Source of the DNA: a phage | Sequence record: PX441839.1 | Strand: one strand, 5' to 3' | Length of the DNA: 64,000 nt | Part shown: one piece after another, positions 179-52,966 of the stretch | Layout: each line of letters starts with the position of its first letter | How positions within the stretch are numbered: the first letter of the stretch is position 1 | Notes under the pieces: model-generated | What the model saw: only the letters and a program-made list of their open reading frames with translations | What the model was told of the DNA's origin: nothing | Databases searched by the model: none | Position numbers and translations under genes: made by a program

Positions 179-202
179 TACACCTTAGGCCCCAGGCGGG
201 GC

Positions 203-316
203 CTGTTATGTTATCCTGTCCGGCGATCCTTACTTGCTATCCGGTTCAAGTCCGGTTGATTTTCCAGGCGGGGCGGTATGTGAGCGGGTTCAATCCCCGC
301 CAGGATAACATAACAG
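203..316 (+). ncRNA. tRNA-like structured element closed by a perfect 16-bp inverted repeat
   Basis: Arms ctgttatgttatcctg (203-218) and caggataacataacag (301-316) are exact reverse complements. Core has a canonical T-arm (gcggg-ttcaatc-cccgc, 284-300) and an anticodon-like hairpin (ccgg-ttcaagt-ccgg, 241-255). At 97 nt with no clean D-arm it is not a standard tRNA. Confidence 0.35.
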
Positions 317-337
317 AAAACAATCGAGGGTTTACCC

Positions 338-682
338 ATGACCAAACAGATCCACAGTGTACAGATCACGCCGCTTTTCCGTTGCCATATCTTTTATGAC
401 TGCAATGATCTTGCGGGACAATGGATCGGAGATACCGATGATCAATACGATTTTCCCGAATGGGACGAATTAAACAGGCGAGTAAGCAACGCCGCACATA
501 ATGCCGATCCTGATAACCTGGCAGACGTTTCACACTTTCCAGGCGGGGCCGCTTGCTTTCCCTATATCGAAATAACCGCGCCAACGTGGGCGCTATGTAA
601 ATCGATGGGGGACGCCGTGATCCGTTGCATCCTGGATAATGGCGGGATTGTTGAGCCAAAAGATAACGGAATAAATATTTAA
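338..682 (+). CDS. hypothetical early protein (114 aa)
   Basis: Six-frame ORF with a GAGGG RBS before the ATG; no recognisable motif. Confidence 0.4.
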   Translation: MTKQIHSVQITPLFRCHIFYDCNDLAGQWIGDTDDQYDFPEWDELNRRVSNAAHNADPDNLADVSHFPGGAACFPYIEITAPTWALCKSMGDAVIRCILDNGGIVEPKDNGINI

Positions 683-3187: not shown

Positions 3188-3214
3188 AGGGGCCTTTATA
3201 GGCCCCTTATTTTT
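3188..3214 (+). terminator. rho-independent terminator
   Basis: aggggcc-tttata-ggcccct followed by a T-run. Confidence 0.5.
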
Positions 3215-5256: not shown

Positions 5257-5307
5257 GTAACACATAGGGCGACACAACGTCGCCCACTAACAAAAGAGAT
5301 AAACAAA

Positions 5308-9616: not shown

Positions 9617-9675
9617 TAAATCATACACTTACCACATACAAGTAAACAAATCAATAATAAATAAAAATTGCCTTT

Positions 9676-9860
9676 CACGTTCCCACGGATCAAGGGAGGG
9701 CGCGCCGGAGGCGCGACCTATAGAAAACAGGTAACGAATCAACCCCCGTTGCTAACTCGCAACGGTTTTTGCTTACGTTCCCACGGTCAAGGGATGACCG
9801 CTTATTAGCTACGCTAACCGCTAACATCCTTTAACCGCTTTAACCTGTTTTCTATAGGTC
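9676..9860 (+). repeat. composite structured element: direct repeats, 16-bp inverted repeat and internal terminator
   Basis: Direct repeats (c/t)acgttcccacgg(a)tcaaggga at 9676-9697 and 9774-9794; inverted repeat cctatagaaaacaggt (9717-9732) / acctgttttctatagg (9843-9858); internal hairpin ccgttgc-taactc-gcaacgg + ttttt at 9745-9770. Confidence 0.45.
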
Positions 9861-10512
9861 TTTTTTATGTGTAAATTCCATAAAGTCAAGGGCTTTTATC
9901 AAGTAATTTTCATAATTTTACTGAATGAGAATGCTTATCTTTTGCATATGTAGGCGTAAATTAGCGTAAACAGGCGGACCTGTAAGGACCTGTTAGGGCC
10001 TATAGGATGATTATCATTGCGTATAAAGTAATCAATTAGGGGGTAGTAATGCCTACTTTTGCCTTATTTTGCCTGACCAGAAACGGTCTTCTCTGTCAAC
10101 CAAAAGATAAATTTTTAGCACAAAATGTAAGTGGCCCAAATGAGAACTATTCTCAAAGTAGAGTAATTCCCAAATGTTAATGAGTCTCACCTCAATTGTG
10201 GAATGATTATCATTAAGTCCAGTGTTGGCGGGACCTGGAGCAGGACGGGTAAGCCAGTGCGTATAAGGTATTTTATGTTAAATGGTCAAAAAGTGGGCGT
10301 AGGCACAGTCTCACCGATGAGTCAAGTAATAAACTGTAAATGTGGGACAAAAGCCCGTAATTGTTGGGGAAAGAATCAAACATTTTCGAAGGTAGGGGCG
10401 GCTACCGCCAGCGACAACGGGCAAGCGGGGAAAGGGTAAGTTATTGTTTTTACTGGATATTTGGGAAAGATCGGCCCCATATGTGAGGGGTAACTCAGGG
10501 GTGCCTGGCACC

Positions 10513-17659: not shown

Positions 17660-18201
17660 TATTTCCTAGCTCCGCTCTCAAATGCCCTTTTTGTTACCTT
17701 TGCCATAGCTTCGAGGTCTTCCATTGTCACTGTTGGGTGATTTTTCTCAAGGTATCCCTTTATTGCCCCAATAATGTCACTAAGTTCTTGCAGGGCCATC
17801 AGTTTGACACCTTGTTTCTCAGCATCCATGAATTCCTGCACCTCTTCCATCACTTTCCCTGAGGTCCCGTATGCATGTTTTTCTATATCTACAAGGTGGT
17901 AGCCTGGTGACTTTTTACTTGGACTTACCTTATCTCTTACTTTTACCCAAAACACCCCATTTCGAGTGTCGGTGCTAACAACTGTTCGGATGTAGATCCA
18001 TTCCCCAAGCTCCTCCTTCACTTTGAATCTGTGCCCTGGTTCAATGGTATCCATATCGATAATCTCATCGTGACTAATTTCATCAATGACCGACACAAGT
18101 ACGTTGGGAAGCAGTTTGCATTCATTTTCCATCAGCGATGCTGAAAGCATCACCTCCAGGGCACTCATTTCCATACCTATCTCCTCTTTTAATTTTTCCA
18201 A
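17659..18201 (-). CDS. MazG-like all-alpha NTP pyrophosphohydrolase domain protein (180 aa)
   Basis: C-terminal EEVQEFMDAEKQG ... LQELSDIIGAI matches the MazG acidic helical pattern; start overlaps the downstream gene. Confidence 0.45.
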   Translation of the reverse strand: MEKLKEEIGMEMSALEVMLSASLMENECKLLPNVLVSVIDEISHDEIIDMDTIEPGHRFKVKEELGEWIYIRTVVSTDTRNGVFWVKVRDKVSPSKKSPGYHLVDIEKHAYGTSGKVMEEVQEFMDAEKQGVKLMALQELSDIIGAIKGYLEKNHPTVTMEDLEAMAKVTKRAFESGARK

Positions 18202-19304
18202 GCCATATCTTGAACCTTAAGAATAACTTCTTCTGCTAACTTCTTGTCTGAATTATACGGCAACGAAGTAGACTTGTAAAGGACATTTCGAACGTACTCG
18301 TCCTTTCCCTCTGCCCACTCAAGAATCTCATCGAGAGTCTTCGATCCATTTCGGATTGCCAATAATTCATCAGCATCTTCACGGAACACATTGACTTCCC
18401 CTGTTGTGAGGATCTCTTCCGCCATTCGCATCAGGCGAACAAGGTGCATAGCGTGTTTTGTGTCGTAACCGAATTTAACCTCCAATTCATGGCGTGTGGC
18501 ATTACGGTTTTTCTTCCAATTCCAATAGTTCTTGTGCTTTTCTTTTGCCTGTTTGTGTTCTTCCCGCATGTACTTAACAAAGAACAGCGGAGGCTGGCGC
18601 TTAATACTGTCTGGGATCTCTTCATACACAACCTTCCTGATAGAACCATCTGGATTGAACATAGGTGGAACATTGTCCCGATGGTCAGGAACAACAGCAA
18701 AATGATCTGCACCAAGTGGAATCATTGAACAAACCCCAACCATGTTATTCAGTTTCCTCATGAAGTCCTCGTGCTTGAGCACAGGAACAGACAAATAACT
18801 TTGCACAAGTCTGAAAAACTCCAACTGACTTGGTGCTTTTTCTGGTTGCGGGTTGTTAATCCACTTATCGTGACCTCGGATACGCTTAAGTTGGCTCATT
18901 GCATACCCGCTAAATCTGTGCGCCACGTTGGAATTCAAAAAGGTATGAGCATTGTCCCGAAGAATATCAAATTCCGGCGTTCTGTACAGGATCTCTTGGT
19001 CCCTAGTGAATAGGGTCTCAATGATGTTTGGGTTCATATCCAGAAACAAACTCATGAACGTATTCAATTCATAAACTTTACCATCCTCTGCTCCAGGGAT
19101 GTTTAGTTCAGTTACCTTCTTGAAGGGTGTCCGCACAACACCCGGTTTTGCAACAAAGATACCTCGGATATCTGTATCACTCGTCGGAAGAGATGTACCG
19201 TAAGCCTTCGATCCTGACAAGTTTAGCATGACCACTTTTGAAACGTCTGGATGCTTTTCCAGACTTGCTACCATACTTAATACCTCTCCATTCGGAACAC
19301 ACAT
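18189..19304 (-). CDS. Pol-beta-superfamily nucleotidyltransferase (about 371 aa)
   Basis: hG[GS] ... [DE]h[DE]h signature LSGSKAYGTSLPTSDTDIRGIF; ATG at 19304 preceded by GGAGGAGG RBS. Confidence 0.6.
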   Translation of the reverse strand: MCVPNGEVLSMVASLEKHPDVSKVVMLNLSGSKAYGTSLPTSDTDIRGIFVAKPGVVRTPFKKVTELNIPGAEDGKVYELNTFMSLFLDMNPNIIETLFTRDQEILYRTPEFDILRDNAHTFLNSNVAHRFSGYAMSQLKRIRGHDKWINNPQPEKAPSQLEFFRLVQSYLSVPVLKHEDFMRKLNNMVGVCSMIPLGADHFAVVPDHRDNVPPMFNPDGSIRKVVYEEIPDSIKRQPPLFFVKYMREEHKQAKEKHKNYWNWKKNRNATRHELEVKFGYDTKHAMHLVRLMRMAEEILTTGEVNVFREDADELLAIRNGSKTLDEILEWAEGKDEYVRNVLYKSTSLPYNSDKKLAEEVILKVQDMAWKN

Positions 19305-19400
19305 GTTTACCTCCTCCAATTCGACCATCGTATAAATCACAGAGGCCACACCCTCTGCTTTTTAATTTTTTATAGTTAGAACAGTTCTCGCAACTACGTG

Positions 19401-20468: not shown

Positions 20469-20937
20469 CCTTTAAGCGAAGCTTTTTAATATTCACCAAA
20501 AGCTCTCGCTCACCCTCTGTAAAGTAACGGGTATCCCCATCTTCCGTGAGGTATGTAAATGGGGCATTACCCTCCTCGTCAAGTTTAGAGGAATACATAT
20601 ACTCTGGCAGTACAATACAGGCCGCAGTTAATGCACCATTCAAAGCATCCTCTGTTTCCTGGAAAAAGGAAGATGGCAGGTGCTTGTTCTTGTCGAAGAT
20701 GTCGATAAGGTCGAATATCTTCTGCTGATAACCACCATTAAGTACGATGATTGTCTTATCTGTGGATGCCCACTGTTTTGCCATCCTCACAGCAGCATGG
20801 CCTTGGTTTACCGCAGAGTTGTACTTATGCATAAGTTCAACAATGGCGTGAGCAGACTGAATACCTGCATGGATACCTGCGATATACTGATTAACAACAC
20901 AATACATACGGGTTGACATATTTCTCTCCTTAATCAT
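20461..20937 (-). CDS. putative peptidyl-tRNA hydrolase, PTH2-like (158 aa)
   Basis: MYCVVNQYIAGIHAGIQSAHAIVEL and QW...KTIIVL follow the PTH2 pattern (M.LVVR...G.AAQ.SHA / W...K.VV); sits directly before the CCA enzyme. Confidence 0.45.
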   Translation of the reverse strand: MIKERNMSTRMYCVVNQYIAGIHAGIQSAHAIVELMHKYNSAVNQGHAAVRMAKQWASTDKTIIVLNGGYQQKIFDLIDIFDKNKHLPSSFFQETEDALNGALTAACIVLPEYMYSSKLDEEGNAPFTYLTEDGDTRYFTEGERELLVNIKKLRLKGE

Positions 20938-22243
20938 TTAACCATTTTGGTGTATATGCGTATTGCAAATTACGAATATTCTTTTCTGTAATATCTGACT
21001 TAGCTTTTAGGATACCTCTTGCAACATAGCCTACTTTCAGACTCTTTACCTTTTGCTGGATAACCTCTGGTCGTCCTTTGAACTCCTCTGCGATCTCTCT
21101 GCTCTTTTTAGATATCTCTGACCTGTTTCTTACCAACTCCGCAACAGCACCGAGCAAGATATAAGGTTGATCATAGGCATCGTGAATTTTTGTAGGCCCT
21201 CGTCCACGAGCATCGCAAATACACGCCTCTACAAATTTCATTATAAACTCTTGGTCTTTCTCACCTCTCAACCGAGAAATTAAATCATATACCTTTTTCG
21301 GCCTCATGTCCAACACCCTGTGAAGTCGGGTATGATCGTCACATACCCTCCAAGCAAGGTCCATCCATTTGTTTGGAACTCCGAACCTGTCTCCCAACGA
21401 TTTTACGTAACCAAGTCCCTCAAACTCATGACCTCGTAGATGACCATGATCCCAGTACATAACCTTTCCAAGATCGTGGCACAATACTGCCCATTTCACC
21501 TCCGGTGCTGACTTAAGCCCTTGTGCGTAGTCCAAGCAAAGAAGGGTGTGTACATAGGCATCTCCTTCTGGGTGGTGAGCCTCAGGTTGCTTAACCCCTT
21601 TAAGATTATTTACCTCTGGCATTTCTCCAAGTTCGCACAAGGTGTCTATCATTATTGACGGTTTGTTCAAAGAAGATTGGTCTTCAAAACACTTACGGAT
21701 CTCCGCCATTTTTCTTTCTTTTGGGAGAGCCGCAAGGTTTTCCTTTGCTCGGTGTGCCAAAAGAACAGTGCTTGCTGCAACTTGGAAAGTTCCACCGTAC
21801 CTGGCGAACAATCTTGCCAGTCGGTAAATTCGCAAAGGGTCATCTCGTAATGTGTCACGGGAGACATGTCTAAGGACTTTCCTTTCTATGTCCTTTGCCC
21901 CATTAAAAGGATCAACATATTCTCCGGTTTCCAAATCTTTTGCAATCGCATTTATAGTAAGATCTCGTCTCTTTAAGTCTTCTTCGATTGTTACATCTGG
22001 GCTGAAAACTACCTCAAAATCATGGTATCCTGCTCCAGTTGATCGTTCGGTACGTGCCAAGGCGTACTCTTCCTTGGTTTCTGGGTGAAGATAAACAGGG
22101 AATGCAGCACCAACTTGCTCAAACCCCATTTCAATCATGTCCTCGTGGGTATATCCAACACAAACATAATCCTTATCTTTTGGCTCCAGACCCATCAGTT
22201 CGTCACGGACGGCACCTCCAACCAAGTAGATCTTCTTATTCAC
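20930..22243 (-). CDS. cca: tRNA nucleotidyltransferase (CCA-adding enzyme) with HD domain
   Basis: N-terminal LVGGAVRDELMG ... DKDYV head-domain motifs and a C-terminal HD-type region; 437 aa. Confidence 0.8.
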   Translation of the reverse strand: MNKKIYLVGGAVRDELMGLEPKDKDYVCVGYTHEDMIEMGFEQVGAAFPVYLHPETKEEYALARTERSTGAGYHDFEVVFSPDVTIEEDLKRRDLTINAIAKDLETGEYVDPFNGAKDIERKVLRHVSRDTLRDDPLRIYRLARLFARYGGTFQVAASTVLLAHRAKENLAALPKERKMAEIRKCFEDQSSLNKPSIMIDTLCELGEMPEVNNLKGVKQPEAHHPEGDAYVHTLLCLDYAQGLKSAPEVKWAVLCHDLGKVMYWDHGHLRGHEFEGLGYVKSLGDRFGVPNKWMDLAWRVCDDHTRLHRVLDMRPKKVYDLISRLRGEKDQEFIMKFVEACICDARGRGPTKIHDAYDQPYILLGAVAELVRNRSEISKKSREIAEEFKGRPEVIQQKVKSLKVGYVARGILKAKSDITEKNIRNLQYAYTPKWLND

Positions 22244-52328: not shown

Positions 52329-52347
52329 ACCAAAGAGAGAATTTAGC

Positions 52348-52426
52348 GCGGGTGTATCTCATCCGTCTTCTAAACGGACGTTAACCGAGTAATTGGAGTA
52401 TGGGGGTTCGAATCCCTCCACCCGCG
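52348..52426 (+). tRNA. atypical tRNA-like gene with anticodon-type hairpin UCU (Arg?)
   Basis: Canonical T-arm ggggg-ttcgaat-ccctc and acceptor gcgggtg/cacccgc, but no D-arm, a 23-nt extra segment, no CCA, and the acceptor extends to a perfect 16-bp stem (52339-52354 / 52419-52434). Confidence 0.4.
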
Positions 52427-52450
52427 CTAAATTCTTTTGAGGTGTAAAAA

Positions 52451-52966
52451 TTGCTAAACTTGAAAAATCAAAATATAGATAAAGGCACGGGATATTTATA
52501 CGTGTACGATCCAAGTCACCCAATGGCAAATAAGTCTGGAAAGGTTTATGTTCACAGGTATGTTGCAGAGACGGGGTTTGGTATAAAACTAACACCTGAC
52601 CTGATAGTTCACCACAAGGATGAGAATAAGCTAAACAACGAGCTAACAAATCTCGAAGTTATGACTTATTCTGAACATGCCCGTCACCACCACGGGGCGG
52701 ATTTTGTAGAATGTGTATGCAAGACCTGTGGCAATGTAACTTTGAGGAGGCCCTCGGAAGTTGTATCATTTTGTTCACACAAGTGCTCAACAACATTCAG
52801 AAGGAAATTTGAAATCTCTCCTCAAGAGTTGCAGGATTTGGTTTGTAACTACCCAGTTAGTGTTATTGCAAAGATGTTTGGGGTTAGTGATACAGCAATA
52901 CACAAGAAATGTAAAACCCTAGGGATTAAAAAGATGCCGAAAGGATTCTTTTTAAGACTCCCTTGA
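52451..52966 (+). CDS. HNH homing endonuclease
   Basis: YVHRYVAE ... IVHHKDENKLNNELTNLEVMTYSEHARHH is a classic HNH motif; C-terminal Cys cluster and HTH-like region. Confidence 0.7.
   Translation: MLNLKNQNIDKGTGYLYVYDPSHPMANKSGKVYVHRYVAETGFGIKLTPDLIVHHKDENKLNNELTNLEVMTYSEHARHHHGADFVECVCKTCGNVTLRRPSEVVSFCSHKCSTTFRRKFEISPQELQDLVCNYPVSVIAKMFGVSDTAIHKKCKTLGIKKMPKGFFLRLP

Follow-up and report, generated by a model that had tools for sequence, protein, structure and literature searches.

The species 1 and 2 RNAs of phage T4 are small phage RNAs that resemble transfer RNA (tRNA). Together with M3 RNA and the P1/P7 C4 precursor (PMC11143913), they are non-decoding phage RNAs that present tRNA-like features to the host enzymes that process tRNA. 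Ribonuclease (RNase) P cuts several such non-tRNA substrates, among them phage M3 RNA, the P1/P7 C4 RNA precursor, tRNA-like viral structures and polycistronic messenger RNAs (mRNAs) (PMC11143913). Herein, an element of related character is described, which spans positions 203–316 (114 bases) of a 64,000-nt stretch of phage DNA (record PX441839.1; the whole stretch is referred to as the window) and lies between two early genes. The element is real, structured and selected, but few genomes carry it and relatives can dispense with it. Its origin is very probably a tRNA gene. Since its fold has been kept through compensating mutations, it is probably a working RNA, neither a normal tRNA gene nor junk. 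Tentatively, it is read here as a tRNA-derived structured RNA in the bicistronic mRNA of the CR3_130 and CR3_131 homologues, selected for its fold and likely to act as a processing signal that releases a tRNA-like RNA.

Canonical tRNA genes (RF00005) share with the element a 7-bp acceptor on a 5-bp T stem, the UUCRAUC loop, a purine at position 57 and a discriminator base. The element differs from them in that it has no G18G19 D arm and no encoded CCA, measures 97 nt, carries nine extra leader–trailer pairs and a lower-half helix foreign to tRNA, and scores below every tRNA-model threshold. The T4 species 1 and 2 RNAs, M3 and C4 have no sequence relation to the element, which, unlike them, lies between protein cistrons rather than in a tRNA cluster or immunity region, and whose processing is predicted. 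Embedded tRNA-like signals for RNases P and Z that may release a small RNA are also found in tRNA punctuation, the plant mitochondrial t-elements and the MALAT1 mascRNA (RF01684). These systems are organellar or eukaryotic, none has a 16-bp leader–trailer stalk, and the likeness is one of working principle. Long perfect pairing of flanks inside a polycistronic transcript is shared with RNase III stalks, such as the leader–trailer stems of ribosomal RNA operons and the intercistronic sites of T7 early mRNA; the classical T7 RNase III sites, unlike the element, have internal loops and no enclosed tRNA-like domain. Finally, the allo-tRNAs that resemble selenocysteine tRNA (tRNA-Sec) (PMC5389517) share with the element an acceptor helix of more than normal length, a D-position stem of 5–6 bp and a wide gap that separates the anticodon-side hairpin from the T arm; some of them are inactive, possibly regulatory, and found in phages (PMC5389517). 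This resemblance is superficial: allo-tRNAs have a T stem of 3–4 bp against 5 bp in the element, a D loop of 4 nt against 7 nt and a 12- or 13-bp acceptor branch against the 16-bp stalk, whereas the element is without a variable-arm helix and CCA and scores far below threshold. The element resembles known tRNA-like processing elements in the way it would work and belongs to none of them.

Architecture and tests of tRNA identity

The element is closed by a perfect 16-bp inverted repeat on the plus strand, consisting of CTGTTATGTTATCCTG at 203–218 and its exact reverse complement at 301–316, with 82 nt enclosed. Within these arms, TATCCTG (212–218) and CAGGATA (301–307) form the two strands of a 7-bp acceptor-like pairing, and 203–211 contributes the leader–trailer pairing. 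The 3' arm is touched by a canonical T arm, GCGGG-TTCAATC-CCCGC (284–300), in which A or G, both allowed, occupies tRNA position 57; the closing stem and the stacked T stem together give a helix of ~21 bp. A308 stands at the discriminator position and is followed by CAT, not CCA, so that the tRNA-like unit from 212 to A308 is 97 nt long. The arms, the T arm, the acceptor pairing, this length and a hairpin CCGG-TTCAAGT-CCGG had all been pointed out in an earlier sequence-only reading, and each was recovered at the positions given here.

The interior departs further from a tRNA. At the D position, the hairpin GGCGA-TCCTTAC-TTGCT (222–238; 5 bp including two G-U pairs, from constrained folds) lacks G18G19, and its loop, UCCUUAC or UCCUCAU, is without GG, in line with the earlier description of the D region as absent or degenerate. 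A second internal helix, termed helix X, is assigned by covariation and joins CTTAC (229–233) to GTATG (276–280). If helix X is taken as an anticodon stem, as in the relaxed ARAGORN call described below, TTGCTAT (234–240) is a candidate anticodon-like loop with U33, GCT and A37, which is then followed by a 35-nt insert (241–275). This insert contains the CCGG-TTCAAGT-CCGG hairpin (241–255), whose heptaloop is T-loop-like, and an 11-nt motif, CCAGGCGGGGC (264–274). Judged from its sequence, the element retains the tRNA "top half" (the 7-bp acceptor on the 5-bp T stem with its UUCRAUC loop) and has lost the decoding features. The lower half is non-canonical, with the covarying helix 229–233/276–280, and nine leader–trailer pairs lengthen the acceptor helix to a stalk of 16 bp.

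Chance does not readily produce these features. Perfect 16-mer inverted repeats within 250 nt occur at three loci in the window and at none in 100 dinucleotide shuffles of it. The 17-nt T-arm sequence is found once in the window, with 0.02 chance matches expected. In a scan of the 64 kb for a TTCRANN hairpin with an adjoining 7-nt strand that has a perfect upstream partner, the only hits were bona fide tRNAs, the site 52348–52425 and this element. The plus-strand RNA fold of the element has z = -4.5. A minus-strand RNA was considered less likely, as the neighbouring genes are all on the plus strand, the T-loop motifs are plus-only and the plus-strand stems use G-U pairs. The open reading frame (ORF) 208–399, which had already been suspected to be spurious, was rejected as protein-coding by its substitution pattern: 13 codons differ from the diverged copy described below, 10 of them nonsynonymously (hand translation of the alignment). 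Its ATG lies within the closing stem, with just a GC hairpin upstream.

The searches with ARAGORN and Rfam that had been proposed for this locus gave no call at 203–316 at default or gathering thresholds (29 bits for RF00005), while they report ten and eleven tRNAs, respectively, elsewhere in the window. No known RNA family was found by Rfam in the whole window at gathering thresholds that covers the element, nor in a low-threshold search of 211 nt (150–360, E<=10); in the latter, the best match of the element, and the sole hit from the tRNA clan, is tRNA-Sec with 15.8 of the 47 bits required (E = 1.1), and the others are chance matches to long hairpins of miRNA type. ARAGORN finds nothing in the element by default and nothing useful in its mitochondrial and tmRNA modes. 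When relaxed to an 80% threshold (-i -ps80), it proposes a tRNA-Ser(GCT) with helix X as anticodon stem, the loop TTGCTAT, an intron of 35 nt (241–275) and a mis-registered acceptor.

Compared feature by feature, the element has a 7-bp acceptor stem that runs directly into a 5-bp T stem, and its T-loop is of the UUCRANY form; it lacks the G18G19 D arm. Regarding the anticodon stem, the 241–255 hairpin has a stem of 4 bp and G or U at position 37; UUGCUAY obeys the rules, yet lies 35 nt from the 3' strand of its stem. All 10 window tRNAs encode NCCA and have 0–1 leader–trailer pairs, as compared to ACAT and nine pairs in the element. For tRNA-Sec and allo-tRNAs, a branch of 13 bp (8/5, 9/4) or 12 bp (8/4, 9/3), a 6-bp D stem with a tetraloop, a long paired variable arm and, for tRNA-Sec, the anticodon UCA are expected; found instead were a 5-bp T stem on a 16-bp helix and a 7-nt D-position loop, with no common variable-arm helix in constrained folds and no UCA in the anticodon register. 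The structural prerequisites of an RNase P or RNase III substrate, i.e., the acceptor/T minihelix and the 16-bp helix, are present, and cleavage is predicted. A retron non-coding RNA would combine flanking inverted repeats with a neighbouring reverse transcriptase gene; neither ORF beside the element has a reverse-transcriptase domain in Pfam.

Distribution and compensatory change

Three of ~28 related genomes carry the element: the window, Salmonella phage SSBI34 (its closest relative, with 96.9% identity over 1–1200 and three differences in the element) and one metagenomic phage contig, L014, which was recovered as IMGVR_UViG_2029527006_000001, as AGFS01061535 and in a Logan assembly. In the remaining ~25 relatives, a spacer of 46–80 bp stands in its place. 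The element was not found by BLAST in other phages, E. coli genomes or plasmids, nor by exact-pattern scans with three conserved blocks in 185,579 species genomes (GTDB), JGI metagenomes or, beyond the same phage, IMG/VR. Contigs carrying homologues of the downstream gene were also inspected and yielded the same three carriers only. Four single IMG/VR matches to the arm sequence proved to be unrelated coding sequence. Furthermore, a covariance model of the element detected no paralogue in 221 kb (the window and related loci), and no ancestor stands out among the window's own tRNAs (global-alignment z-scores <= 3).

The evidence for selection comes from the comparison with L014. The two elements differ at 14 of 114 positions (12%), whereas 48 of 123 synonymous third positions differ in the two flanking genes (38–41%; Fisher p = 3e-6), which are 27% divergent overall. 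The similarity collapses right past the 3' arm, where the spacer aligns poorly. Of the 14 differences, eight make up four compensatory pairs (214–305, 217–302, 231–278 and 233–276). In the closing stem, T214-A305 is replaced by G-C and T217-A302 by C-G in L014, so that the 16-bp stem stays perfect; in helix X, T231-A278 becomes C-G and C233-G276 becomes T-A. The other six differences spare every candidate stem and fall in the loops of the 241–255 hairpin and the T arm or in joining regions. The stem of the D-position hairpin is invariant, with both substitutions in 222–238 inside its loop, and that of the 241–255 hairpin is invariant as well, with G or T at loop position 250. Positions 234–239 of the heptamer do not vary and 240 is T or C, while the T-loop reads UUCAAUC or UUCGAUC in the three copies. 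The sequence-only reading had named compensatory change in related phages as the check to be made, and this check returned four compensated pairs and no broken stem. The tRNA-like character proposed there, with an intact top half in something other than a normal tRNA, is borne out. Its anticodon-like role for the 241–255 hairpin finds no support from covariation: the internal helix that covaries is 229–233/276–280, and the loop has G at "position 37" in one lineage and U in the other; T-loop rules fit it better.

Two folds describe these data. The combined model contains the closing stem, 222–226/234–238, the 241–255 hairpin, the T arm and a 3-bp pairing of loop and 3' side (231–233/276–278); the nested alternative has 229–233/276–280 as a 5-bp helix with one U-U and fits equally well. 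Both models rest on two lineages, and thermodynamic predictions favour neither. In the combined model, 99 of 99 pair cells are standard and four double changes occur, which is matched by 5 of 500 shuffles; controls in which the partner strand was slid gave 38–53% pairing and no double changes. When the ten interior substitutions were placed at random, ~1% of the patterns gave a helix of at least 3 bp with at least two double changes. Structures from RNAalifold and from energy minimization were not adopted, because each has pairs broken in one lineage and leaves the T arm unused. In addition, GGCGGGG (267–273) can pair with CCCCGCC (295–301) instead of forming the T arm, as seen in alignments and in the minimum-energy fold of L014.

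Genomic setting and the sibling element

The window belongs to a Vequintavirinae phage that is Certrevirus-like and of Salmonella/Cronobacter type. The element is placed between homologues of CR3_130 (stop codon at 176–178) and CR3_131 (ATG at 338), both of which are of unknown function; neither Pfam nor PHROGs gave a functional clue for these ORFs (PHROG 13378 and 13100), apart from a sub-threshold SPOR match of the upstream one. After the CR3_130-homologue stop, the terminator scan reports a terminator-like GC hairpin, T1 (186–205, plus strand), which reaches 3 nt into the element's 5' arm and is conserved in all relatives, including the ~25 without the element. The closing stem itself does not resemble an intrinsic terminator: it is followed by AAAACAAUC, and the scan reports just 186–205. 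Downstream, a Shine-Dalgarno-like CGAGGG (325–330) precedes the CR3_131 homologue, hereafter gene 131 (unit 325–682, plus strand, 114 aa). The spacer 317–337 is common to the other carrier and unlike that of element-free relatives.

In CR3, CR8, CR9, PBES 02, phiTE, CB7 and others, similarity to the window begins only at position 336. The element-free set, comprising ten GenBank relatives and contigs from Logan, ENA, JGI and IMG/VR with eleven other clusters of downstream-gene homologues, has T1 followed directly by the ribosome-binding site in the 46–80 bp spacer (CR3 type: TTCGTGTGGAGTCAGTACC). The window retains T1, and the interval from T1 to the ATG is replaced by the element with a different spacer and ribosome-binding site. 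The earlier reading had likened the element to the RNAs of phage tRNA regions; the likeness holds in kind, but the element itself lies outside the tRNA region, where it was inserted between two cistrons or replaced what stood there. In relatives, the start of gene 131 is 19 nt past T1, and no promoter of its own was found in their spacers. As this conserved gene has no own promoter there, transcription would have to read through T1, and the element would therefore have to be transcribed. The T1/element junction is mosaic: compared with CR3, the window is 25% divergent upstream and 8% downstream, whereas L014 shows the reverse pattern (13% upstream, 25% downstream). Given this junction, the element has probably spread by recombination, while also evolving under constraint.

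The motif CCAGGCGGGGC at 264–274 exactly repeats the sequence of T1 from its loop through its 3' half (192–202). In SSBI34, the two copies (at 3197 and 3269 of its locus, L001) carry the same C-to-T change, although just three differences are noted across 203–316. The parallel change may point to gene conversion or shared constraint. A third copy (539–549) was rejected as a related motif; it is coding and changes independently, and is thus taken as a coincidence.

A sibling of the element, E3, lies at 52338–52435 on the plus strand and was found by the inverted-repeat scan. Its closing stem is perfect over 17 bp, and it has a 7-bp acceptor and a T arm, no D arm, an anticodon-type loop CTTCTAA, a variable region of 23 nt, 10 leader–trailer pairs and no CCA. 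Energy minimization folds E3 into a cloverleaf without a D arm, set on the 17-bp stalk (z = -5.1). The E3 unit scores 38.4 bits on RF00005 and is missed by ARAGORN; against the mascRNA model it gives a weak match of 18 bits. In SSBI34, E3 is identical and unannotated. The acceptor and T arm of E3 equal those of a normal tRNA-Val on an unrelated viral contig, from which it follows that E3 derives from a real tRNA. E3 is situated within the tRNA cluster, directly upstream of the ribosome-binding site of an HNH homing-endonuclease ORF (52451–52966), and the element likewise sits just before the ribosome-binding site of an ORF. The two have the same design and share no sequence. Among 37 T-arm/acceptor units from the collected loci, an extended stem combined with the lack of CCA occurs only in copies of the element and of E3.

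A link to homing endonucleases was considered and dropped, since the nearest relatives of the E3-adjacent HNH gene lie in tRNA clusters without an E3-type element. A related HNH gene on another viral contig, L045 (IMGVR_UViG_3300020577_003668), is flanked by two T-arm/acceptor units of 101 and 79 nt (486–586 and 1254–1332) that end in ACCA and are called by ARAGORN in neither case; these may be further non-canonical phage tRNAs.

The window also encodes enzymes that act on RNA ends. The minus-strand gene 20930–22243 specifies a protein of the class II CCA-adding-enzyme type with PolyA_pol head and HD domains, and its Cca-type product could add CCA to tRNA-like RNAs that lack it. A gene for an RNA-repair nucleotidyltransferase of the RlaP family is located at 18189–19349 (minus strand), and the SSBI34 annotation adds, at 107925–109833, an RNA ligase 2-like gene and a phosphatase.

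Two further non-coding features were observed in the window. The hairpin-containing 31-mer CATAGGGCGACACAACGTCGCCCACTAACAA is present in three exact copies (737–767, 1115–1145 and 5263–5293); near-consensus sigma-70 promoters (702–730 and 1080–1108) sit immediately upstream of copies, and it appears to be a repeated promoter-plus-leader cassette ahead of small early genes. At ~9660–9875, a non-coding unit is conserved in all Certrevirus relatives (26 records, none annotated). Within it are internal GC hairpins and two copies of ACGTTCCCACGG(A)TCAAGGGA that do not vary, and it is closed by a perfect 18-bp inverted repeat (9715–9732/9843–9860) followed by a T run. This long-range stem covaries between phages (T-A to A-T; CAGGT/ACCTG to GGGT/ACCC), and Rfam offers just a 10-bit RsmY match. 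With its several GGA motifs, the unit has the look of a gene for a phage small RNA that annotation has missed.

Proposed role and rival explanations

The most likely role of the element is that of a processing signal for RNase III and RNase P or of a small tRNA mimic. Cutting is proposed here because the conserved parts are those read by tRNA-processing enzymes together with an RNase III-type helix. In the envisaged sequence of events, read-through of a leaky T1 would transcribe the element, and the host's RNA-processing enzymes would recognize the 16-bp stalk and tRNA-like top half. The stalk would be the target of RNase III, RNase P would cut where the acceptor strand has its 5' end, and RNase BN/Z or exonucleases would trim the 3' side. 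The mRNA would then be cut between its two cistrons, in a form of "tRNA punctuation": the upstream mRNA would keep a 3' hairpin, and the downstream mRNA would begin just before its ribosome-binding site. A tRNA-like RNA of ~100 nt would be released, to which a host or phage CCA-adding enzyme might add CCA. The phage's own Cca-type and RlaP nucleotidyltransferases count in favour of this reading.

Several points weigh against it. Transcription, cleavage and any role of the released RNA are steps that we infer. The covariation rests on a single sequence comparison, given that the three carriers represent two lineages, and the low divergence could partly reflect recent horizontal transfer instead of constraint. 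The minimum-energy fold of the window's element (-47.0 kcal/mol) is not tRNA-like and lies below the tRNA-like folds (-42.0 and -40.1 kcal/mol), and RNAalifold proposes yet another structure. In E. coli-type hosts, RNase P would be hindered from cutting directly by nine leader–trailer pairs and by the missing RCCA, so that a first cut by another enzyme must be assumed. Moreover, the ~25 relatives without the element do well, and it is therefore dispensable for gene 131 expression.

The explanation closest to the processing signal makes the released RNA itself the functional product, as a tRNA mimic or decoy that would titrate or mislead a putative host factor, be it the CCA-adding enzyme, an enzyme that modifies or processes tRNA, or the anticodon nuclease of a defence system, with the mRNA cut being incidental. 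It is compatible with all data and differs from the processing signal only in which product matters, and it would accommodate the intact top half, the selected fold, the tRNA-end and RNA-repair enzymes of the phage and the existence of two elements of one design as lineage-specific accessories. In phiTE, a relative from this phage group, the ToxI antitoxin is known to be mimicked at the RNA level, which also speaks for a decoy. We nevertheless consider this unlikely: in the tests run, no known nuclease target corresponded to either candidate "anticodon loop", and a single copy inside an mRNA may be of low abundance. A more far-reaching version, which appears improbable, unites the element and E3 in a class of CCA-less, D-arm-defective tRNA mimics that would be cut from mRNAs via 16–17 bp stalks, finished by phage CCA-adding and RNA-repair enzymes, and then work in trans, as decoys or inhibitors, against the host's tRNA-targeting immunity or its tRNA-processing enzymes; at its extreme, the 35-nt insert after UUGCUAY may be removed by a nuclease and a ligase to leave a D-armless tRNA-like adaptor. 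Genuine decoding, by a D-armless tRNA with anticodon GCU after removal of that insert or by a class II-like tRNA with anticodon CAA, is very improbable. The relaxed ARAGORN call uses the covarying helix as anticodon stem, UUGCUAY obeys U33 and A37 in both lineages, the discriminator is A, and a phage CCA-adding enzyme and, in SSBI34, an RNA ligase are encoded; the call, however, is made just at the 80% threshold with its acceptor stem out of register, and the Rfam tRNA models fail. The CAA reading is further contradicted by U at position 37 in L014 and by the absence of a conserved variable-arm helix. Enterobacteria and their phages are not known to splice out an insert of 35 nt, and bacterial translation factors are not known to accept D-armless tRNAs.

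The patchy distribution of the element, its site at a mosaic junction and its failure in tRNA models could be those of a decaying tRNA pseudogene or a functionless recombination scar that looks conserved due to recent spread between phages, and prokaryotic annotation contains many non-canonical tRNA gene fragments (PMC9897764). Such decay is likewise unlikely, as neutral change would not give four compensated pairs and no uncompensated hit in 30–33 bp, a perfect 16-bp stem would not survive two changes per arm, and the divergence is three-fold below that of synonymous sites. A cis-regulatory leader of gene 131, in which alternative folds (CCAGGCGGGGC with T1 or with the T-arm CCCCGCC) tune T1 termination or translation, would make sense of the position between a terminator-like hairpin and a ribosome-binding site, of the 11-nt repeat common to T1 and the element with its parallel change in SSBI34, and of the pairing that can replace the T arm. 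It seems improbable nonetheless: no predicted fold occludes the ribosome-binding site through the element, identity with T1 is lost in L014 (TGGC versus AGGC), the motif's third copy lies in coding sequence and changes in another way, and neither a ligand- or protein-binding signature nor an Rfam cis-regulatory match was found. At the DNA level, the small size, the perfect 16-bp terminal inverted repeats and the presence/absence polymorphism at one site in divergent backgrounds recall a miniature inverted-repeat transposable element, with the arms as its ends. Mobility of this kind is quite improbable. There is no target-site duplication (the flanks are GGGGC and AAAAC), the element is single-copy in the window and in the examined parts of the SSBI34 genome rather than present in many copies, and the database searches found it only in the same phages; its boundaries are not at the repeat ends, as the replaced segment extends past the 3' arm into the spacer, and covariation of an internal 5-bp helix has no DNA-level rationale.

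The practical value of the tRNA-derived processing signal is modest, given that the element is rare, dispensable in relatives and putative in function. A long leader–trailer stalk together with the lack of CCA nonetheless offers a simple signature for finding more such elements. If the reading is true, structural selection can act on tRNA-like sequences that annotation pipelines overlook or discard as pseudo-tRNAs. A virulent enterobacterial phage would then employ a degenerate tRNA as an RNA-level device within an mRNA, and "tRNA punctuation" and tRNA mimicry, which are familiar from organelles, eukaryotic long non-coding RNAs and RNA viruses, would extend to an operon of a double-stranded DNA phage.

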